Of a stretch of 33,670 nucleotides of DNA, positions 525 to 21,070 are shown in pieces. Position 1 is the first letter of the stretch. Every line of letters begins with the position of its first letter. The stretch comes from Candidatus Binatia bacterium (GTDB lineage Bacteria; Desulfobacterota; Binatia; UBA9968; CAXXLF01), in the NCBI GenBank assembly GCA_036443615.1, contig JAZFYO010000326.1, forward strand, positions 1 to 33,670, written 5' to 3'. The notes beneath the pieces are model-generated. The model was not told where the DNA came from, made no database searches, and saw only the letters and a program-made list of their open reading frames with translations. Position numbers and translations under genes: made by a program.

Positions 525-652
525 GTTTCTAAGGCTTAAACAATTTCCGTACGTAAAAAGTTCCGCTAAAAACCATTTGGAGAATAGGGATCTACTACAG
601 AGGAGGGAACTTTTTCTTGGTCACTTTTTGTTGAGAGAACAGAGGCTGGTGA

Positions 653-1953: not shown

Positions 1954-2577
1954 ATGTTTAATTCGTTCAATATTCCAAAAGCAATCATGGCTGGTTTCTT
2001 AGGAACGGTGGCCATGACCATCCTGATGTATGCTTGGCCTCTGATAGGCCTTCCCAGCATGGACATCATAGCCGCACTGGGGGGGGTGTTTCCCTTCAAT
2101 ATGTCACCTTACGTCCTGGGATCGCTGATTCATCTCAGCATAGGGATCTCAATGGCTCTGATCTATGCCTTGTTTTTTGCCTCTCGGCTACCCGGTCCAG
2201 GTTGGCTACGCGGTGCGCTGTTTTCCTTTCTTCCCTGGATTTTCGCCATAACTCTCTTCGGCCCAGGCCTTCAACTAGCCAGTGAATTCTTCAAGGGAAA
2301 AGAGGCCATTGCGGCCAACCCGTGCTCTATATCGCAGCCCTGTCAAGTCCGCCCAGCGAATCCTTGTGCGGTGAACCAACCCCGATCCAATCCATGCGCT
2401 GCAAAGGTAAGCAATCCATGTGGAGTCAGTGCCAATCCTTGCGCTGTGGCGAATCCCTGCGCAGTGACCACGGCGCCCTCTAGGGGGCCTTCCCCCCAAG
2501 TTATGAGCTTGATTGTCCACCTGCTCTTCGGTATGGTTCTAGGTGCCGCCTACAGACCTTCAGGTGAGTTAGTTTAA
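1954..2577 (+). CDS. integral membrane protein with a Cys-rich [N/Q]-P-C repeat loop
   Basis: 207-aa ORF with AAAGGAGG 7-8 nt upstream. About four hydrophobic helices in residues 1-110 and one C-terminal helix (LIVHLLFGMVLGAAY). They are separated by ANPCSISQPCQVRPANPCAVNQPRSNPCAAKVSNPCGVSANPCAVANPCAV (nt 2314..2466). No family name recognised. Confidence 0.75.
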   Translation: MFNSFNIPKAIMAGFLGTVAMTILMYAWPLIGLPSMDIIAALGGVFPFNMSPYVLGSLIHLSIGISMALIYALFFASRLPGPGWLRGALFSFLPWIFAITLFGPGLQLASEFFKGKEAIAANPCSISQPCQVRPANPCAVNQPRSNPCAAKVSNPCGVSANPCAVANPCAVTTAPSRGPSPQVMSLIVHLLFGMVLGAAYRPSGELV

Positions 2578-2578
2578 G

Positions 2579-3106
2579 ATGAAATTCGCGTTGCTTGGAC
2601 AATACCCGGGACTCCAATCTACATCTGAGAGAAGAACCCGCCTGTTTCGAAGAACGGTGCTGTGGACTTTGATGCTGTTCCTTCTGCCCACAGGACCGGT
2701 CTGGGCCGACTCCCACGTCACCAGTGAAAACGGAGTGGTGGTGGTGACCCTGACCCAGACCCCTTGCCTTTTTGTCGAGGCAGAGGCCAATCCCCAAACC
2801 TACCGCTCCAACAAAGCTGCGGAATGCATTGCCATCAACAAACACACCGCAGGTCAGCGCCAATTCATGCCTCTTCACTTAAGAGCCGGGAAAGTGATCT
2901 TCCGAGTCGCAAATAATAATGTCCCCTATGAGCTAGGCTTTTGGGTCCGGGGACAGGGACTCGGACGCGTCACCCTGCCCTCGGTGTCAGGCGGCGGGCT
3001 GATGCCTGGCCAGACCAAAGAGTACGCTATCACCTTAAAGAAGGGGGCATACTGGTACAGCTGCCCGCTGAATCCTACGCCCAACTATCCGCTCATCGTC
3101 GAATAG
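2579..3106 (+). CDS. exported cupredoxin-like protein (canonical Cu ligands not evident)
   Basis: 175-aa ORF. The ATG sits 1 nt after the upstream TAA, indicating translational coupling. RR-containing signal-like N-terminus (SERRTRLFRRTVLWTLMLFLLPTGPVWA|DS). The C-terminal YWYSCPLNPTPNYPLIVE resembles the Y-x-Y-x-C end of cupredoxins, but the His/Met ligand pattern is missing. Confidence 0.6.
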   Translation: MKFALLGQYPGLQSTSERRTRLFRRTVLWTLMLFLLPTGPVWADSHVTSENGVVVVTLTQTPCLFVEAEANPQTYRSNKAAECIAINKHTAGQRQFMPLHLRAGKVIFRVANNNVPYELGFWVRGQGLGRVTLPSVSGGGLMPGQTKEYAITLKKGAYWYSCPLNPTPNYPLIVE

Positions 3107-3263
3107 TGCGTTGGTTTGCCAATCTGCCTGGACGATACGGTTTGGAGGACATCCCTGCCCCATCCTAAACGCTCCCCGCACATTTCACCGTACCAGGAAC
3201 TTTTCCCTAACCATAAGAGTTTGCCCTGGAGGAAAGGTCCTCCACTGTATTGGGTGAAGTGAT

Positions 3264-3291
3264 TTGCGGTCTCTGCCCTATAGGCTAAAAT
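3264..3291 (+). promoter_or_regulatory. putative sigma70-type promoter upstream of arsM
   Basis: TTGCGG (3264..3269), a 16-nt spacer, then TAAAAT (3286..3291), about 100 nt upstream of the arsM ATG. Pattern match only. Confidence 0.3.
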
Positions 3292-3389
3292 GTCATCCTA
3301 GAGAGCGTCGACCGAGGAATGATCGGCGATTTGGACGACCACCGTAAGTGAGGGCCCTTCAATCACTATAAAACAAAAAGGAGACTATT

Positions 3390-4598
3390 ATGAGTGAGGA
3401 GAGACAAGCACCCATCAAAGGAGTTAACAATACCAATAGTCGTGGATTAGATTTTGAAGAGGCGGTACTGCACCGCTATGAGAGTGCCGCCAAGGAGGCT
3501 GAGGCCGGCCTATGCGTTCCTGTCAGCTACGACTCTTCCCTTCTGAAAGTCATCCCTGAGGAGGTCATAGAAAAGGACTATGGTTGTGGAAACCCTTCTC
3601 AATACGTGAGGGAAGGGGAGACGGTACTTGATCTTGGCTCCGGGAGCGGGAAGGCCTGTTATATCATCTCACAGATTGTTGGCCCGAAGGGCAGGGTCAT
3701 CGGAGTAGACTTTAATGAGGAGATGCTAGCCCTGGCCCGCAAGTATCAAGAGACCGTCGGAAAGAAACTGGGCTATCATAACGTGGAGTTTCGCCGTGGT
3801 AGAATTCAAAACCTCAGGGTCAACCTGGATCTCCTCGATCAATACCTGGCGGCTAACCCTGTCCGTTCCGCCTCCGAGCTTCACAGGCTACGCGAATTTG
3901 AAGGGAAAATCTCGTGCGAAGACCCCATGATCCCAGACAATTCTATTGATGTCATCGTCTCTAACTGTGTGCTCAATCTGGTCCGGCCTGAAGATAAGAA
4001 GGAGCTGTTTTCTGAAATGTTTCGTGTGCTCAAAAGGGGAGGAAGGGCCATCATCTCGGACATCGTCAGCGATGAGCCAGTTCCGGGGCACCTGAAAATC
4101 GATCCCGATCTCTGGAGCGGGTGCGTCTCTGGTGCCCTTGAAGAGGAGGAATTTTTCCTCTCCTTTGAAGAGGCCGGTTTTTATGGAATCCATGTCGAAG
4201 AGATGAGGTCAGAACCCTACCAGACGGTGGAGGGAATCGATTTCCGCTCTATAACGATCTCTGCCTATAAAGGGAAAGAGGGGCCCTGTATCGAGAGAAA
4301 CCAAGCGGTGATCTACCGCGGCCCGTGGAAACAGGTCGTGGACGACGATAACCACGTCCTTCCCCGGGGGGTACGGATCGCCGTTTGTGATAAGACCTAC
4401 CAGATCTACTCCAAGCCGCCTTATCAGGATCAATTCATACCAATCCAGCCCAGGGAAGAGATTCCTCTGGAGAAGGCCGAGATATTTGACTGTGCCCGAA
4501 CGGACAGACGCCACCCGCGCGAGACCAAAGGAATGGATTACCAGGTGACACAGAGCCCTTCCGGTATCTGCGGACCTGGAGGCAACTGCTGCCCATAG
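3390..4598 (+). CDS. arsM: SAM-dependent As(III) methyltransferase (ArsM family) with a Cys-rich C-terminal extension
   Basis: 402 aa, with AAAGGAG upstream. ArsM hallmarks are present: DYGCGNP, SAM motif I VLDLGSGSGKA, SNCVLNLV and WSGCVSGA (positions of the As-binding cysteines). The tail ends GICGPGGNCCP. Confidence 0.8.
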   Translation: MSEERQAPIKGVNNTNSRGLDFEEAVLHRYESAAKEAEAGLCVPVSYDSSLLKVIPEEVIEKDYGCGNPSQYVREGETVLDLGSGSGKACYIISQIVGPKGRVIGVDFNEEMLALARKYQETVGKKLGYHNVEFRRGRIQNLRVNLDLLDQYLAANPVRSASELHRLREFEGKISCEDPMIPDNSIDVIVSNCVLNLVRPEDKKELFSEMFRVLKRGGRAIISDIVSDEPVPGHLKIDPDLWSGCVSGALEEEEFFLSFEEAGFYGIHVEEMRSEPYQTVEGIDFRSITISAYKGKEGPCIERNQAVIYRGPWKQVVDDDNHVLPRGVRIAVCDKTYQIYSKPPYQDQFIPIQPREEIPLEKAEIFDCARTDRRHPRETKGMDYQVTQSPSGICGPGGNCCP

Positions 4599-4678
4599 AG
4601 AGAGGAGAACTCCCATGCGGCCCTTTGCCCAAGAAATAAGGGAGGGCAGCTGCAGCGGGACCTTAATCCCTGAGGTCT

Positions 4679-5812
4679 ATGTTATTTTGGTCAATTATCA
4701 TTTTCAGCGCAACGATGTTCGTTGCCTACGCCAACGGGGCAAACGACAACTTTAAAGGAGTGGCCACACTTTTAGGAAGCGGGACGAGCGACTACCAAAA
4801 GGCCCTTTGGTGGGCCACGGTAACGACTTTTGCCGGCTCCATGACGGCATTATTTTTGGCCACAAAGTTAGTGGAAACCTTCCAGGGAAGGGGCCTTATT
4901 CCCGAAAGCCTGACAGGATCGGGGCCCTTTGCCGCTGCCGTCATTCTGGGAACGGGCCTAACGCTATTTTTGGCAACCAAGATCGGGGCGCCCATCTCAA
5001 CTACACACAGCCTAACAGGCGCTCTCATCGGAAGCGGCCTTATGGCTGTAGGTTCGGACTTTGGCTTTGTTGCTCTGTGGGACAAGTTTTTAATTCCGCT
5101 CCTTTTGAGCCCGTTGATAGCGGTGGGCTTGGCGGTTATCGTTTATCCCCTTTTCAGGCTCAGCGCTACCTTTATTGGTTTAACGAGAGAGACTTGCATC
5201 TGTGCAGGAGAGGAGCTCGTCCCCGTAGCCATTACACCGGGAGGACACTTCATGACTACCGGAACCAAGAGCGTGCAAGTTGTCGTGGATCAAGAAGCAA
5301 ACTGTGCGGAGAGCTATACGGAAAAGATTTTCGGTGTCAATGCCCAAACAGCCCTCGGCTCTCTTCATTATTTAAGCGCAGGGGCTTTAAGCTTTGCCAG
5401 AGGCCTCAACGACACCCCAAAGATCGTGGCCCTATCCCTGACTGCAGGAACTCTCGACCTACGTTGGTGTGTGTATCTGGTTGCACTTTTCATGGCTCTA
5501 GGCGGCCTGTTTCATGCGCAGAGAGTGGCTGAAACGATGAGCAAGAGAATCACAGAAATGGACTTCGGCCAAGGTTTCGCCGCCAACCTGGTTGCCAGTT
5601 TTCTGGTCATCTTTGCCTCGAGGTGGGGTCTTCCCGTTTCAACCACCCATGTTTCCTGTGGGGCCTTATTTGGGATCGGCGCAGTCAACGGCAAAGCCCG
5701 ATGGGGTGTCGTTCGAAGTATTGTCCTGGCCTGGGTGTTGACCCTCCCTGTCGCGGCACTGCTGTCGGGGGGGATATTCACGGTGTTGCAAGATCTCATC
5801 GGTAAAGGATGA
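4679..5812 (+). CDS. PiT-family inorganic phosphate/oxyanion transporter
   Basis: 377 aa and polytopic. The duplicated PiT signature is present (ANGANDNFKGVATL near the N-terminus, ARGLNDTPKIVAL in the second half), along with PISTTHSLTGA and PVSTTHVSCGA repeats. Confidence 0.85.
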   Translation: MLFWSIIIFSATMFVAYANGANDNFKGVATLLGSGTSDYQKALWWATVTTFAGSMTALFLATKLVETFQGRGLIPESLTGSGPFAAAVILGTGLTLFLATKIGAPISTTHSLTGALIGSGLMAVGSDFGFVALWDKFLIPLLLSPLIAVGLAVIVYPLFRLSATFIGLTRETCICAGEELVPVAITPGGHFMTTGTKSVQVVVDQEANCAESYTEKIFGVNAQTALGSLHYLSAGALSFARGLNDTPKIVALSLTAGTLDLRWCVYLVALFMALGGLFHAQRVAETMSKRITEMDFGQGFAANLVASFLVIFASRWGLPVSTTHVSCGALFGIGAVNGKARWGVVRSIVLAWVLTLPVAALLSGGIFTVLQDLIGKG

Positions 5813-5824
5813 CCTAAGCGGAAA

Positions 5825-7009
5825 GTGCAAAAGAAACTTATTAAAAACATGACCGCTTCTGTAAAGTCACATCTTCAAACAATTAGGTTCGACCGCAATG
5901 AGCTTTCGGGGGCATTTGGGGATATCGGCACAGACATGCCCCTAATTGTCGGGATGATCCTCGCCTCCAGGCTGGATAGTGCAAGTGTCTTGATCATGTT
6001 TGGCGCGATGCAGATCCTCACCGGTTTCACCTATAGGATTCCCATGCCCGTCCAGCCACTGAAGGCTATGGCGGCAATTGTGATTGCACAGAATTTGACT
6101 GGAAAAATTCTTTACGGAGGTGGGTTAGCTATAGGAATAACAATGCTCTTGTTAACAGTGACGGGATTAATTGATTGGCTAGGCCGAGTGATTCCCAAAA
6201 GCGTTATTCGAGGAATCCAGTTTGGATTGGGACTCAAACTCGCATCAATTGCACTCAAGAATTACGTGGGGGCGGATAGCATCCCTGGTTACTGGCTGGC
6301 AGCAATTGGCTTCGTGATAACTATCCTACTGATAGGTAACCGGAGGTATCCCCCAGCCATATTTGTCATAATTTTAGGCATCGTTTATGCTTTTTTCTTT
6401 AAATTAGACGCAGCCACGATAGTTCAAAGCGTAGGATTTAGCCTGCCTAATATTTATATGCCCACCTTACCGGATGTTTTTGCAGGGTTTCTAATTCTGG
6501 CGCTACCACAAATTCCACTCTCTCTTGGCAACTCGATATTTGCGACAAGGCAGATGACCCAAGACTTGTTTCCAGATCGATTAATTACTGTGCGTAAAAT
6601 AAGTCTCACCTATTCGTTGATTAATATTATCAACCCTTTCCTAAGCGGCATTCCTACCTGTCATGGCTCGGGTGGAATAGCGGGACATTATGCCTTCGGG
6701 GCGCGGACGGGGGGATCTGTAGTGATTTACGGTTTGATTTACCTGGTTTTAGGATTCTTTTTCAGCGGAGGCTTTGAAAAAGTTATTCAAGTTTTTCCTT
6801 TGCCTATTTTGGGGGTAATTCTTCTCTTCGAAGGTTTAACATTGATGCTTTTATTACGGGATGTTTCCGAGTCCAAGCAGGATTTCTCCATTGCTATATT
6901 GGTAGGACTGATGGCCAGCGGCCTGCCGTATGGTTTTGTTATTGGACTAATTGTCGGGACACTGTTGGCTTACCTGCCGCGAACGCGACTCGCCGGATTA
7001 GCAAAGTGA
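5825..7009 (+). CDS. putative sulfate/molybdate transporter (MOT1/SulP-like)
   Basis: 394 aa and polytopic. Has LSGAFGDIGTDMPL and CHGSGGIAGHYAFGARTGGS motifs, typical of MOT1-type (PF16983-like) transporters. The track start is GTG 5825; the in-frame ATG at 5849 is an alternative. Confidence 0.7.
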   Translation: MQKKLIKNMTASVKSHLQTIRFDRNELSGAFGDIGTDMPLIVGMILASRLDSASVLIMFGAMQILTGFTYRIPMPVQPLKAMAAIVIAQNLTGKILYGGGLAIGITMLLLTVTGLIDWLGRVIPKSVIRGIQFGLGLKLASIALKNYVGADSIPGYWLAAIGFVITILLIGNRRYPPAIFVIILGIVYAFFFKLDAATIVQSVGFSLPNIYMPTLPDVFAGFLILALPQIPLSLGNSIFATRQMTQDLFPDRLITVRKISLTYSLINIINPFLSGIPTCHGSGGIAGHYAFGARTGGSVVIYGLIYLVLGFFFSGGFEKVIQVFPLPILGVILLFEGLTLMLLLRDVSESKQDFSIAILVGLMASGLPYGFVIGLIVGTLLAYLPRTRLAGLAK

Positions 7010-7146
7010 AGGAATCGTGGCGACGGACTTTGCACCTTCGCCTAATACGGGCATTGCAGATCACTTGGTTCGCCGAAACGCTTCGCACTTCGCAAGGCCT
7101 GAAAACGCTATGCGAAACCTTAGAGTGAACCTATAAGTTCTGGAGG

Positions 7147-8697
7147 ATGACAATGTCACCCACGATCAGAGAGATCCCAACGGCGATCCGTCACATGATG
7201 ATCGGAGACGACCCTTTCGATCACCAGCTCATCGAAAACTGCCATCCCTCGAATTGGATCAATCCAACGGCCTCCGGCAAGTATAACCTGGTTGTTGTCG
7301 GAGCCGGCACGGCCGGATTAGTCAGCGCTGCCGGCGCTGTCGGGCTAGGGGCCAAGGTAGCCCTCATCGAAAGGACCCTGCTAGGCGGCGACTGCCTGAA
7401 CGTGGGCTGTGTCCCTTCCAAGGGGATGATCCGGGCCTCTCGAGCCGCCTTTGACGTCCTGGATGGGAGTACGTTTGGAGTTCACCTCAACTCCGCGCCT
7501 GGAATTAACTTTTCGGAAGCGATGGAGCGCATGCGCCGGCTCAGAGCCAACATCAGCAAAAATGACTCCGTCCACCGGTTCAAGAATCTGGGGGTTGACA
7601 TCTATCTTGGAAATGCAAAGTTTGTTGGTCCTTCCACCCTAGAGGTCGATGCTGCCTCCCTGGAATTTGACCGTGCTGTGATCGCTACTGGGGCAGCCCC
7701 CGCGAAGTCATCCATCCCTGGTCTGGAGGAAGCCGGCTTCTACACCAATGAGACCATCTTTACCCTGACCGAACTTCCGCGCCGGATGGTAGTTGTCGGG
7801 GCAGGTCCCATCGGTTGTGAGCTGGCCCAATCGTTCCAACGGTTTGGAAGCCAGGTCACCTTGCTAACGCACGGCACACGGATCCTACCCCAGGAGGACG
7901 GCGACGCCGCCGCAGCCATTTGCAGGCAGATGGAGCGTGAGCGGATGCGAATCCTCTATAGTGCCGTGCCTTTACAGGTGAAGAAGAGAGGGTCAGAAAA
8001 AATCCTGTTGCTCTCGCGCGATGGACGGGAAGAAGAGCTGGTCTGTGATGCCATCCTCGTCGGGATCGGCCGCAAGCCCAACGTAGAGGGGCTGGGACTG
8101 GAGGCAGCCGGCGTAAAGTTTTCTCCCAACGGCGTAGCGGTAGATAACCGGCTGCGGACGACGAATCCGCGCATCTACGCCGCAGGCGATATCTGCTCCC
8201 GCTTCAAGTTCACCCATGCCGCCGACGCAATGGCACGCATCGTTCTCGCAAACGCGCTATTCTTCGGGCGCCGTAAAGCAAGTGCCTTGACCATACCTTG
8301 GTGTACCTACACCGATCCGGAAGTCGCTCATGTAGGGTACTACGAAGCCGAGGCGCGCACGGCAGGTATCGAGGTGGCTACCCTCACGGAGAAACTCAGC
8401 CACAATGACCGCGCCATCTTAGATGGTGAGGGTGAGGGATTCGCCCGGATCCATTACAACAGGAAGGATGGTAAAATCCTCGGTGGAACCATCGTAGCCC
8501 GCCATGCAGGAGAAATGATCGGCGAGCTGACCCTGGCCATAACGACAGGGCAAAAGGTAAGCGTTCTCGCATCCACCATTCACCCCTATCCTACTCAGGC
8601 TGAAGTACTGAAAAGGATCGGCGACGACTATATGCGGCAGAGACTCACACCAACTTTAAAGAAGATATTCGAGAGGTGGTTTGCCTGGAAAAGGTAG
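7147..8697 (+). CDS. class I pyridine nucleotide-disulfide oxidoreductase (MerA/Lpd-like flavoprotein disulfide reductase)
   Basis: 516 aa. Has FAD GxGxxG (VVVGAGTAGL), the redox-active GGDCLNVGCVPSK, NAD(P)H-binding VVVGAGPIGCE, and the dimerisation motif HPYPTQAE. There is no NmerA domain and no C-terminal Cys pair, so I do not call it MerA. GGAGG abuts the ATG at 7147, so the ATG at 7153 is the more likely start. Confidence 0.85.
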   Translation: MTMSPTIREIPTAIRHMMIGDDPFDHQLIENCHPSNWINPTASGKYNLVVVGAGTAGLVSAAGAVGLGAKVALIERTLLGGDCLNVGCVPSKGMIRASRAAFDVLDGSTFGVHLNSAPGINFSEAMERMRRLRANISKNDSVHRFKNLGVDIYLGNAKFVGPSTLEVDAASLEFDRAVIATGAAPAKSSIPGLEEAGFYTNETIFTLTELPRRMVVVGAGPIGCELAQSFQRFGSQVTLLTHGTRILPQEDGDAAAAICRQMERERMRILYSAVPLQVKKRGSEKILLLSRDGREEELVCDAILVGIGRKPNVEGLGLEAAGVKFSPNGVAVDNRLRTTNPRIYAAGDICSRFKFTHAADAMARIVLANALFFGRRKASALTIPWCTYTDPEVAHVGYYEAEARTAGIEVATLTEKLSHNDRAILDGEGEGFARIHYNRKDGKILGGTIVARHAGEMIGELTLAITTGQKVSVLASTIHPYPTQAEVLKRIGDDYMRQRLTPTLKKIFERWFAWKR

Positions 8698-8701
8698 GGA
8701 A

Positions 8702-9355
8702 ATGACGGCAACCAGAAGAAAAATACTAATCTTTTCGGGACTCCTAGTGCTTATCGGGTTAGCCTACTGGCAGCGGAGCCACTTACGGATAGAACTCCTG
8801 GTGGAACAGATCAGGGCCCTGGGTCCATGGGGACCGGCGGCCTATATTATTCTCTACCTCATCGCCCCACCCCTTTTCATCCCTGGTTCCGTCATCACCC
8901 TTGCGGGAGGAGCTCTCTTTGGACCACTCTGGGGAACCCTCTACACCATCTTCGGAGCAACCGGTGGCGCCTCTCTGGCCTTCCTCATCGGACGCTACCT
9001 GGCCGGAGATTGGGTCGAGAACAAAGCCAAGGGAATATTGAAACGTCTAAAGGACGGTGTGGAAAAGGAGGGGTGGCGTTTTGTTGCCTTCACCCGATTA
9101 GTCCCGCTTTTCCCATTCAATGTTTTGAACTACGCCTTCGGTCTAACTAAGATCAGGTTCTTTCACTTCGTGGCTGCCTCCTTCTTCTGCATGCTCCCCG
9201 GGGCCGCGGCTTACACATTTATCGGCTATGCAGGACGTGAGGCAGCTCTGGGAGGAAAAGGATTGGTATTCAAAATAGCTGCCGCATGTGGGCTTGTTCT
9301 ATTCGTATTCATGCTTCCCAGACTTATCAAGGCCGTAAAAGGAGATAGCAAATAG
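8702..9355 (+). CDS. TVP38/TMEM64 (DedA-superfamily) membrane protein
   Basis: Motif LFIPGSVITLAGGALFGPLWGTLYTIFGATGGASLAFLIGRYL. The track start is TTG 8681, which overlaps the upstream gene; I prefer the in-frame ATG at 8702 (MTATRRKILIF...). Confidence 0.8.
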   Translation: MTATRRKILIFSGLLVLIGLAYWQRSHLRIELLVEQIRALGPWGPAAYIILYLIAPPLFIPGSVITLAGGALFGPLWGTLYTIFGATGGASLAFLIGRYLAGDWVENKAKGILKRLKDGVEKEGWRFVAFTRLVPLFPFNVLNYAFGLTKIRFFHFVAASFFCMLPGAAAYTFIGYAGREAALGGKGLVFKIAAACGLVLFVFMLPRLIKAVKGDSK

Positions 9356-9365
9356 GCTTCCTCGA

Positions 9366-10046
9366 ATGCTGCGTATCTCGGTTATTATTCCAGCGCTGAA
9401 CGAAGAGAGCATAATTGCCTCGACACTAGAGGCCCTCAGGCCGCTAGCACCGACGGAGGTTATTGTGGTTGATGGCGGAAGCACGGATCACACCAGGGAA
9501 ATAGTTGCGCGTACAGACGCCACGTTAGCCTCTTCCGCACGCGGGCGAGCAGAGCAGATGAATCACGGAGCTAGGCTGGCTCGCGGCGATGTCTTCCTTT
9601 TCCTCCACGCAGATACCCACCCCCCCCCCTCCGCCATAAGTGAAATCCGGTGTGCCCTGGAGGACCCTCGATGTGTAGGAGGAAGATTTGATGTGAGGCT
9701 CGAGGGTAATCATAGGATCTATGGGCTGATTGGCGCCCTGATCAATCTCCGCTCCCGCTTGACTAAGGTAGCCACGGGAGATCAAGCAATTTTTGTCCGC
9801 CGAGAAGTATACGAAGAAATCGGAGGGTTTCCGAACCTCCCCTTAATCGAGGATATCGCCTTTTCCCGTTACCTAAAGAAAAAAGGGAAGGTGGCCTGTC
9901 TCAAGAGTCGGGTTACGACATCCACACGTCGATGGGAAAGGGAGGGGATATGGCAGACTGTTCTAAGAATGTGGGCGCTCAGGCTTCTCTACTTGGCAGG
10001 TGTATCTCCATTCCGCCTTAAGCGCTTCTACGGCGATGCCCGCTAA
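9366..10046 (+). CDS. family-2 glycosyltransferase, TIGR04283-like
   Basis: 226 aa. Motifs: SVIIPALNEE, VVDGGSTD, LFLHADT, GDQAIFVRR, PLIEDIAFSR, TSTRRWE. Size and motif order match what I recall of TIGR04283; no HMM was run. Confidence 0.7.
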   Translation: MLRISVIIPALNEESIIASTLEALRPLAPTEVIVVDGGSTDHTREIVARTDATLASSARGRAEQMNHGARLARGDVFLFLHADTHPPPSAISEIRCALEDPRCVGGRFDVRLEGNHRIYGLIGALINLRSRLTKVATGDQAIFVRREVYEEIGGFPNLPLIEDIAFSRYLKKKGKVACLKSRVTTSTRRWEREGIWQTVLRMWALRLLYLAGVSPFRLKRFYGDAR

Positions 10047-10050
10047 AGAG

Positions 10051-10641
10051 CTAAGGCAAGCCCCTTAACGCCTGCAAGACCTGTTCATTGCTTGCCCTCT
10101 TTCTGTAGTCCACCTCGACAAATTTCCAACGCACCACTCCCCCCTTGTCGATCACATAGGTTGCGGGGTGGGGCCATCCAGGACCGTCAGGATTCAGAAT
10201 CCCATAACGGTCGATCACCTTGTGTTTTTTGTCCTCGAGCAGAGGAAAATCAAAATCTCCCGGATATTCTTTTCTCAGATCCAAAACAAACTTTTTCGAT
10301 TGCTCATGGGAATCGATACTAACGGCCAGTATCCGAACCCTTTCTTTCAATTTCTTTGTCAAGAGACTTTTCAGCTTCCCGAGCTGCTCTCCGCACCACG
10401 GTCACCAATGGCCACGGTAAAAAACAAGGACCACATTCATTTTGCCGCGAAAATCGGAAAGCGAAATTGCCCTCCCGTCCATATTTTCTAAGGTAAAATC
10501 CGGCGCCCTGTCCCCGACCTTAACTCTCTCCAAATCTGTGAGTCTTAAACCGGCCTTATCTTTGGGTCCTAACTGGGCGTATACTGAAGATATTAAAAGG
10601 AATATCAGTAATACCAAAGTATTGAAGGTGTGTTGAACCAT
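10051..10641 (-). CDS. exported AhpC/TSA (redoxin) family protein with in-frame UGA, a probable selenocysteine (U80)
   Basis: Track ORFs 10402..10641 and 10051..10362 are in the same frame, separated only by TGA (10402..10404). Read-through gives ...[21 protein letters not shown]...[12 protein letters not shown]...[11 protein letters not shown]..., with UGA at the first Cys of the W-C-x-x-C motif. The N-terminal signal peptide is [22 protein letters not shown]. Confidence 0.7.
10361..10391 (-). promoter_or_regulatory. candidate bacterial SECIS hairpin
   Basis: Minus-strand RNA starting 11 nt after the UGA: GAGAG-CAGCU-[CGGGA]-AGCUG-(AAAAGU bulge)-CUCUU. The G-rich apical loop begins about 20 nt after the UGA. 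Folded by eye only. Confidence 0.45.
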
Positions 10642-20298: not shown

Positions 20299-20628
20299 CT
20301 ACCAGCGGTCGCGTCTGCCGCCCCCGCCCCCGCCACCTTTACCTCTATCTCTATCTCTGCCGCCTCCACCAGACCTCGATTCCTGTGGCCGTGCCTCATT
20401 GACGGTGAGCTCGCGCCCCTCAAGCTGTGTGCCGTTGAGGGCGTCAATAGCCTTTTTGGCCTCTTCGTCACTGCTCATCTCCACAAAACCGAAGCCCCGT
20501 GACCGACCGGTAAATTTGTCCGAGATCACCCGGGCTGACTCAACGGTCCCGTGCTCCTTAAAAATCTCCTCAAGCTGGCCATCAGTTACCGCAAAAGGAA
20601 GCCCGCCAACGTAGAGCTTATTTCCCAT
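20299..20628 (-). CDS. glycine/arginine-rich RRM-type RNA-binding protein
   Basis: I place the start at ATG 20626..20628, with AAGGAGGAG upstream (the track extends to 20721). MGNKLYVGGLPF (RNP2), RGFGFVEM (RNP1) and the tail SRSGGGGRDRDRGKGGGGGGGRRDRW. 109 aa. Confidence 0.9.
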   Translation of the reverse strand: MGNKLYVGGLPFAVTDGQLEEIFKEHGTVESARVISDKFTGRSRGFGFVEMSSDEEAKKAIDALNGTQLEGRELTVNEARPQESRSGGGGRDRDRGKGGGGGGGRRDRW

Positions 20629-21070
20629 ATTCTCCTCCTTATGGAGATTGTTAATGTCTTCAACCCTGTAATACTGACTACTAATAGGAGCAGAACATGG
20701 AGACTGGATAACTGGAACCAAGCTCTGGTCGGTTGTTCCTTTAGGGTCTCGTTATCAAGGTAAGACTTAATAGGCCTTCAACTCTCTTAACCATCCATCC
20801 CCAGGAGGCCTTATACCGAAGACAAGCCAAATCTACGCCTTTTTCATAGATTGTCAAACTGCGGGGATCCAAGCCTCGAAGCCTAATCCAATGACCTCAA
20901 TTGCTGCCCATTCATTTACGGCTTGATGAACCCCATGGCCGAATCCATCTAAACCGGTCACGTAAAAGGCCTTATCAGTCATCTCATTTCGAGCCCGTGC
21001 GATTAAGCGCCACAGGTGTGATCGGATGGGCTAGGGGGGCGGATGTTTGACAAAATTAAGTAAAAAAGTT

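Follow-up and report, generated by a model that had tools for sequence, protein, structure and literature searches.

A probable arsS-deletion derivative of a common ArsM-type gene cluster beside gyrB in a Candidatus Binatia bacterium

Gene content of the block

The stretch of DNA analysed here, called the window, comprises 33,670 nt of a Candidatus Binatia contig (JAZFYO010000326.1) and carries, next to gyrB, a block of genes that includes an ArsM-like methyltransferase (MT). The block is a degraded variant of a common, annotation-defined and experimentally unstudied cluster type. It probably derives from the widespread arrangement MT-ArsS-(PiT)-VTT/FADred-GT283, where FADred is a flavin adenine dinucleotide (FAD)-dependent oxidoreductase and GT283 a glycosyltransferase (GT) of family TIGR04283, the arsS gene having been lost through an internal deletion of ~915 bp. 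Coordinates are window positions, L numbers (e.g. L174, L005) denote related loci compared with the window, and L007 is a contig record reaching beyond the window edge. The block contains the following features:

1954-2577, + strand: DUF6789 membrane protein with an NPC-repeat loop (Pfam PF20587, 46.8 bits)
2672-3106 (alternative start 2579), + strand: secreted protein of 144 aa with a predicted cupredoxin fold (AlphaFold2 and Foldseek; no family match)
3196-3206, + strand: extracytoplasmic function (ECF) sigma-type -35 element GGAACTTTTCC, 195 nt 5' of the MT start
3390-4598, + strand: ArsM-like S-adenosylmethionine (SAM) methyltransferase, 402 aa (NCBIfam ArsM-type models, conserved cysteines)
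4599-4678, + strand: putative arsS deletion scar, 80 bp (alignment to the MT-PiT interval of L174)
4679-5812, + strand: PHO4/PiT-family oxyanion transporter, 377 aa, intact (PF01384, full-length match, 221.3 bits, gathering threshold 33.7)
5825-7009 (probable start ATG at 5849), + strand: MOT1/SulP-like transporter (PF16983, matched in two stretches, 183.8 bits, gathering threshold 30)
7147-8697, + strand: FAD-dependent pyridine-nucleotide-disulfide oxidoreductase, FADred (NF004991, 740.1 bits, cutoff 620, residues 19-516 covered)
8702-9355 (alternative TTG start at 8681 overlapping the reductase gene), + strand: VTT/TVP38 (DedA-superfamily) membrane protein (PF09335, 95 bits)
9366-10046, + strand: GT2 glycosyltransferase GT283, 226 aa (TIGR04283, 265.6 bits, cutoff 182, full-length match 1-221/221)
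10051-10641, - strand: secreted AhpC/TSA-family redoxin with an in-frame TGA at 10402-10404, converging on the GT gene

A preliminary description of this DNA had counted nine co-directional genes separated by short gaps; eight genes are co-directional and one is convergent, and two intergenic gaps are long, namely 283 bp 5' of the MT gene, with a promoter-like motif inside, and 137 bp 5' of the reductase gene. The identities it gave to the NPC-loop membrane protein and to the PiT, MOT1 and TVP38 proteins agree with the Pfam matches, and its assignment of the 226-aa GT2 protein to TIGR04283 holds, with orthologues in relatives also passing the cutoff at 226-278 bits. As it had also stated, arsS, arsR, arsB/acr3, arsC and the TIGR04282/DUF2064 gene were not found in the window by hidden Markov model (HMM) scans and mapping.

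The seven top NCBIfam matches of the MT are all ArsM-type models, though every one falls below its cutoff, and a grouping with non-arsenic methyltransferases, which the preliminary description had named as evidence against its view, was not observed. The closest PDB match is CmArsM (1.4e-33), with the YGCG, SNCV and GC..GAL cysteines aligned. Cys42, Cys66, Cys193 and Cys245 are kept in 163-164 of 164 family sequences, and their spacing (24/127/52) equals that of Cys30/54/181/233 in BgArsM, the Burkholderia gladioli enzyme (PMC8552651). The family-specific Cys300, Cys333 and Cys368 and a C-terminal CGPxxxCC tail are likewise conserved among the 164 members. Family identities are 66-77% across Binatia, Methylomirabilota, 'Deltaproteobacteria' and Udaeobacter and 52-63% in Omnitrophota, cyanobacteria, planctomycetes and verrucomicrobia; the closest MT among GTDB representatives, which do not include the window's species, is 77% identical. 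The HMM matches and the four conserved cysteines suggest an ArsM-like enzyme of the arsinothricin-ArsM subtype, predicted to methylate trivalent arsenic.

FADred has the redox centre CLNVGC (CxxxxC) and an N-terminal ENCHP motif, which lies N-terminal to the FAD domain (window 7147-7300, reductase residues ~20-45) in 34 of 45 orthologues. A MerA identity was rejected, with TIGR02053 giving 367.8 bits against a cutoff of 454.45 and the C-terminus (...FERWFAWKR) lacking a Cys pair; this agrees with the earlier view of a MerA-like CxxxxC reductase devoid of MerA-specific extras. Among distinct orthologues, 38 of 45 are fused to an upstream VTT/TVP38 domain, and VTT as a separate gene downstream of the reductase occurs in the window clade only. 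The PiT protein falls below the PitA and CysP equivalog cutoffs, and its gene is placed after arsS in about one third of related loci. The MOT1 gene is limited to the window clade (L006, L001, L005 and L174).

The arsS remnant and the cluster in relatives

The close relatives have the following gene orders:

L174 (MT 84% identical to that of the window): DUF6789, cupredoxin-like, MT, ArsS, PiT, MOT1
L005 and L001 (MT 81-82%): cupredoxin-like, MT, ArsS, PiT, MOT1, FADred, VTT, GT, redoxin, gyrB
Window: gene order of L174/L005, with arsS replaced by an 80-bp spacer
L004 (MT 90%): MT joined straight to FADred
L006 and L088 (MT 98%): MT joined to MOT1

In L174, L005 and L001, arsS is kept at the exact position of the spacer, and the ArsS of L005 scores 441 bits on TIGR04167 (cutoff 300). 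The spacer was aligned locally to the 989-nt interval of L174 between the MT stop and the PiT start and compared with 1000 dinucleotide shuffles. Its 5' part scored 47, against 16.8 +/- 2.2 in shuffles (0/1000), and maps to L174 nt 1-43, and its 3' part scored 26, against 16.5 +/- 2.2 (3/1000), and maps to nt 961-981. The spacer contains the arsS ribosome-binding site (4599-4614), nine codons from the start of the gene (4615-4641) and ~6 from its end, stop included (4658-4675), the stop codon lying out of frame through a 1-nt deletion. Because both ends match, in collinear order, the ends of the L174 arsS, the simplest history is the in-frame removal of ~915 bp followed by a later 1-nt loss that displaced the stop. 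Against the L005 reference the 3' remnant alone was not significant, significance being gained with the closer L174.

That the gap is an artefact of metagenome assembly appears extremely improbable. The exact junction is found on one contig, and at this spot close strains carry different ones, as such an error might produce; the arsS remnants, however, have diverged from L174 about as much as the flanking genes, a 1-nt deletion disrupting the stop is not expected from a collapsed assembly, and arsS is likewise missing behind the same MT in two independent samples (L004; L006/L088).

In L006/L088 (1640-1700) a deletion joins the MT gene to MOT1 and changes the MOT1 ATG to ATA, and in L004 (7306-7360) another joins MT to the reductase gene. 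Since these deletions differ yet begin at most a few bases away from the MT stop, they point to a local deletion hotspot, and the middle of the cluster is being trimmed in the window lineage. No recognisable arsS or PiT remnants were found at the junctions of L004 and L017. In both L001 and L005 a DDE transposase lies 5' of the cluster, with a Transposase_mut gene also present between MOT1 and the reductase gene in L005, and PiT is split into two open reading frames (ORFs), through either a real frameshift or long-read error; the positions of these mobile elements and PiT splits in the two loci are 7121-8497, L005 14673-16007 and 12199-13351.

A total of 167 related loci were retrieved, and the window proteins and one ArsS were mapped onto them by tblastn. 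The usual order, seen in more than 60 loci, is MT-ArsS-(PiT)-VTT::FADred-(DUF547)-GT283, which upholds the stated association of ArsM and TIGR04283 with ArsS and MerA-like/TVP38 proteins. Among the 80 loci whose MT identity is 60-85% and whose downstream sequence extends for 1.3 kb or more, ArsS follows the MT directly in 75 and after PiT in two more (77/80 together); it is missing from three (L017, L021 and L098), all gyrB-linked. None of the outcomes that the preliminary description had named as refuting its view was seen outright. Its proposal that the lack of arsS marks a variant architecture whose chemistry is unexplained does not stand, given the ~915-bp deletion and the regular membership of PiT in the cluster. 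The absence of TIGR04282 is not special either, because by named genes it is missing, together with DUF2064, from every MT-anchored locus checked, second GT-like matches being TIGR04283. This cluster type occurs very commonly in Binatia, Methylomirabilota, Omnitrophota and in soil and groundwater bacteria related to them, and is known through annotation by association only. The accessory set of the Methylomirabilota loci differs from the Binatia type: in L002, L009, L039, L043 and L171, ArsS or PiT is succeeded first by a 172-aa GRDB/PrdB-like protein, which is a selenoprotein B family fragment, and then by an 86-aa protein, VTT, DUF3047 and GT283.

All retained genes of the window are full length. 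Ratios of nonsynonymous to synonymous substitution (dN/dS), calculated between the window and L004 (both without arsS) unless stated, were 0.14 for MT, 0.15 for FADred, 0.17 for VTT, 0.15 for GT283, 0.14 for the cupredoxin-like gene, 0.28 for DUF6789 and 0.18 for MOT1 (against L005), with 0.11 for GyrB as a comparison. Being intact and under purifying selection, the retained genes are presumably still useful.

A rival reading is that the pathway is intact and split, arsS having been relocated in the genome while the block still feeds an ArsS-dependent pathway to arsenosugar-type organoarsenicals. This is possible, albeit clearly less probable than a simple loss. The purifying selection seen on MT, FADred, VTT and GT283 is consistent with a full pathway still in use, and a precedent exists in the complete Binatia chromosome OZ244621.1 (4,459,497 bp), where the gyrB-linked locus L021 lacks arsS and a lone arsS, P0228, lies ~750 kb away. 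P0228 is 74% identical to the ArsS of L005, and its neighbours are ECF sigma/anti-sigma, Pyr_redox, DUF3179 and glycine-reductase-like genes; a comparable lone copy of arsS is present in L173, a sister assembly from the same project. Because of this chromosome, absence of arsS from the block does not show its absence from the genome. A search with the L005 ArsS, however, gave no sequence above 80% identity with an NCBI source, whereas a copy belonging to the window's own genome would be expected at ~82-90%, and the reductase of L021 is broken into fragments, indicating decay of that locus rather than a tidy split.

A further alternative is that MT, FADred, VTT and GT283 are self-sufficient and that their main job was never ArsS-dependent, with arsS, PiT and MOT1 as optional accessories; such a module might act at the membrane on methylated arsenic or on some other soft metalloid or thiol-reactive compound. 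The gyrB-linked lineage shows no fewer than two losses of arsS (window clade; L017, L021 and L098), MT and GT283 being retained in each, L004 retains only MT-FADred-VTT-GT283 with dN/dS of ~0.15, and the cupredoxin-like family occurs beside VTT-FADred-DUF2064 without MT or ArsS in L177. This alternative is nevertheless quite improbable, since outside the gyrB-linked lineage ArsS stays with the MT (77/80 loci), which implies tight functional coupling, and the L021 reductase decays once arsS has left the locus. The repeated loss of arsS from loci whose MT, VTT-coupled reductase and GT283 genes stay intact still leaves room for a proposal, rather unlikely on present evidence, that the 'arsenosugar-associated' module serves a separate, ArsS-independent function.

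Derivation of the block from the MT-ArsS cluster type by deletion of arsS thus remains the preferred reading, and several points count against it. The preliminary description had credited the MT with all arsenic-binding cysteine motifs; the four cysteines are conserved, but the MT lies below every NCBIfam ArsM cutoff, scoring 348 bits on the strongest ArsM model, NF040538 (arsinothricin ArsM; cutoff 500), 201 bits on PRK11873 (cutoff 263) and 137 bits on the Synechocystis-type NF038099 (cutoff 400). TIGR04283 carries its 'arsenosugar' label through association-based annotation, and a literature search on 'TIGR04283' returned no match. Purifying selection on the retained genes would be expected equally with arsS acting in trans. 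Only one metagenome contig shows the window junction, with different junctions in L006 and L004, and the loss of arsS may fall before or after the split between the window and L004.

Regulation, accessory proteins and chromosomal setting

The -35 element GGAACTTTTCC at 3196-3206 is followed after 18 nt by GTTT, and the 283-bp leader in which it lies, including the GGAACTTT block, is conserved in L004, L005 and L174. Three exact copies of the 11-mer occur on the contig, against 0.01 expected, and a fourth site matches with one mismatch:

Window 3196-3206, + strand: exact copy, 5' of the MT gene
L007 511-521 (-) and 563-573 (+): exact copies, one 5' of an ECF sigma gene and one divergent from it, the sigma gene lying just outside the window at L007 650-1306
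Window 606-616, + strand: GGAACTTTTTC, one-mismatch copy of the ECF-type -35 motif, 5' of a small ORF (~678-833) and a 135-aa ORF (851-1258), its downstream spacing and TGTT matching the L007 511-521 (-) copy

A GGAACTTTTCC-type motif, followed after ~18 nt by (T/G)GTT or GTTT, thus precedes the ECF sigma gene, the two small ORFs and the MT gene. Among relatives, GGAAC-N14-18-CGT(T/C) was found at most 350 nt 5' of the MT in 47 of 143 distinct loci (median position -156), compared with five on the opposite strand and none in coding controls, and ECF sigma and zf-HC2 anti-sigma genes flank the clusters of L002, L004 and L169. A generic scan for sigma-70 promoters and terminators gave background levels. 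From these motifs, ECF-sigma control probably replaces the missing arsR.

The cupredoxin-like protein has no Pfam or NCBIfam match; its homologues, all hypothetical proteins, number more than 2000. Its AlphaFold2 model (predicted local distance difference test score, pLDDT, 89) was matched by Foldseek to EfeO, the CuA domain of N2OR and amicyanin (E values of 1e-5 to 1e-4, template modelling scores of ~0.45-0.5), so that, by structural modelling, the secreted protein is predicted to have a cupredoxin fold, as had been proposed. Cys32, Cys52 and Cys131 are invariant and no His or Met is; classical type-1 copper binding was rejected, as the ligand set of His, Cys, His and Met is not conserved. 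On the Methylomirabilales contig L177 (8001-12106) a homologue lies directly 5' of VTT, Pyr_redox, DUF2064 and NUDIX genes, from which the family appears to travel with the reductase module even where MT and ArsS are absent; L177 is also the only locus in which a DUF2064 gene was found.

The DUF6789 gene is present in L004, L174 and L002. Its loop (protein residues ~120-172) has about seven (A/S)NPC repeats in the window, six in L004 and three to four in the Methylomirabilota locus L002, and could be a candidate soft-metal or metalloid-binding loop.

The redoxin gene, whose stop codon lies 4 bp from that of the GT gene, had been described as encoding a selenocysteine peroxiredoxin. The 4-bp gap and the in-frame TGA are present, but the TGA sits in a thioredoxin-type W-U-P-W-C motif, and a hairpin resembling a selenocysteine insertion sequence (SECIS) after the TGA has a folding energy no better than shuffles (z = -0.59) and no Rfam match. 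The top NCBIfam match, below cutoff, is ResA. The TGA is kept in L004 and L001 and is CGA (Arg) in the near-identical L005 (~19450), with ~30 nt 3' of this codon invariant in all four sequences. Redoxin homologues occur near the MT in L011 and L040.

The genes 3' of the block are gyrB, gyrA, gpsA, rnpA, yidC and jag, followed by a TetR/RND pump, ispG, proS, pyrF and ribBA, which places the block on an ordinary chromosome near the replication-origin gene set. The window was also located on a 37-kb metagenome contig (JAZHCB012118080.1, assembly GCA_044232445.1), on which its first letter is position 2298. The window GyrB shares 80-81% identity with its counterparts in two 'Candidatus Binatia' genomes where the linkage is the same. 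A small RRM-type RNA-binding regulator (20302-20721, - strand; NF058537, 112 bits), unrelated to the block, lies between jag and the TetR/RND genes. Scans of the window for Rfam families at gathering thresholds and for tRNAs gave no matches.

Proposed pathway and comparison with known systems

As established in published work, ArsM provides trivalent arsenic in methylated form, and dimethylarsenite is adenosylated by ArsS to 5'-deoxy-5'-dimethylarsinoyl-adenosine (PMC13598754; bioRxiv 10.1101/2022.09.23.509062; PMC8552651 citing Xue et al. 2019). By analogy, an ECF-sigma promoter would drive the cluster in the intact relatives, the ArsM-like MT would methylate trivalent arsenic, ArsS would attach a 5'-deoxyadenosyl group to dimethylarsenite and PiT would possibly admit arsenate, with the VTT-coupled reductase and GT283, linked to the cluster by association, perhaps serving a downstream step or redox support. 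In the window, the step of C-As adenosylation would be gone from the locus, and the block alone would provide at most oxyanion uptake (PiT, MOT1) and arsenic methylation, acting as a methylation-type detoxification unit unless arsS is supplied from another locus.

A single missing gene on a single contig is no ground for inferring new chemistry. More useful leads are the recurrent loss of arsS with the other genes kept, the BgArsM-like subtype of the MT, the VTT::reductase fusion and the ECF motifs, the last three also offering handles on organoarsenical synthesis by non-phototrophic bacteria. Natural arsS-deletion variants are ready-made genetic controls that show which genes are kept under selection without the C-As-forming enzyme. 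If the ArsS-free function were real, family labels now in use would mislead; it might, for example, consist in dealing at the membrane with methylated arsenic or another thiol-reactive metalloid, as part of an ECF-sigma stress response.

The cluster resembles the ArsM/ArsS pathway known from Synechocystis sp. PCC 6803, as well as the NCBIfam set labelled 'arsenosugar biosynthesis' (TIGR04167, TIGR04283, TIGR04282, NF038099), in that an ArsM-type MT adjoins a co-oriented TIGR04167 gene in the window's relatives, the window GT is a true TIGR04283 member and a MerA-like reductase and TVP38 are associated. It differs in the deletion of arsS from the window, in an MT outside the NF038099 type, in the absence of TIGR04282/DUF2064, and in its additional PiT, MOT1, DUF6789 and cupredoxin-like genes, its ECF-sigma motifs and its hosts, which are non-phototrophic Binatia-like bacteria. 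With arsQML of Burkholderia gladioli it shares the top HMM match of the MT (BgArsM, NF040538), the cysteine spacing and, in relatives, the pairing of the MT with a radical-SAM enzyme forming a C-As bond, whereas the MT fails the cutoff of that model, an ArsQ permease is absent and the partner in relatives is ArsS, which transfers 5'-deoxyadenosyl, and not ArsL, which transfers ACP (3-amino-3-carboxypropyl).

With classical ars operons (arsR-arsB/acr3-arsC, with or without arsM) the window shares an arsenite-methyltransferase-like gene, together with oxyanion transporters potentially admitting arsenate, but it has no ArsR, arsenite efflux pump or arsenate reductase, and its control appears to be by an ECF sigma factor. 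Like MerA of mer operons, the window FADred is a flavoprotein disulfide reductase of class I whose redox centre is CxxxxC; it differs in scoring below the MerA cutoff, in lacking the NmerA domain as well as the C-terminal Cys pair, and in belonging to NF004991, a family whose members orthologous to the window protein are usually fused to VTT.

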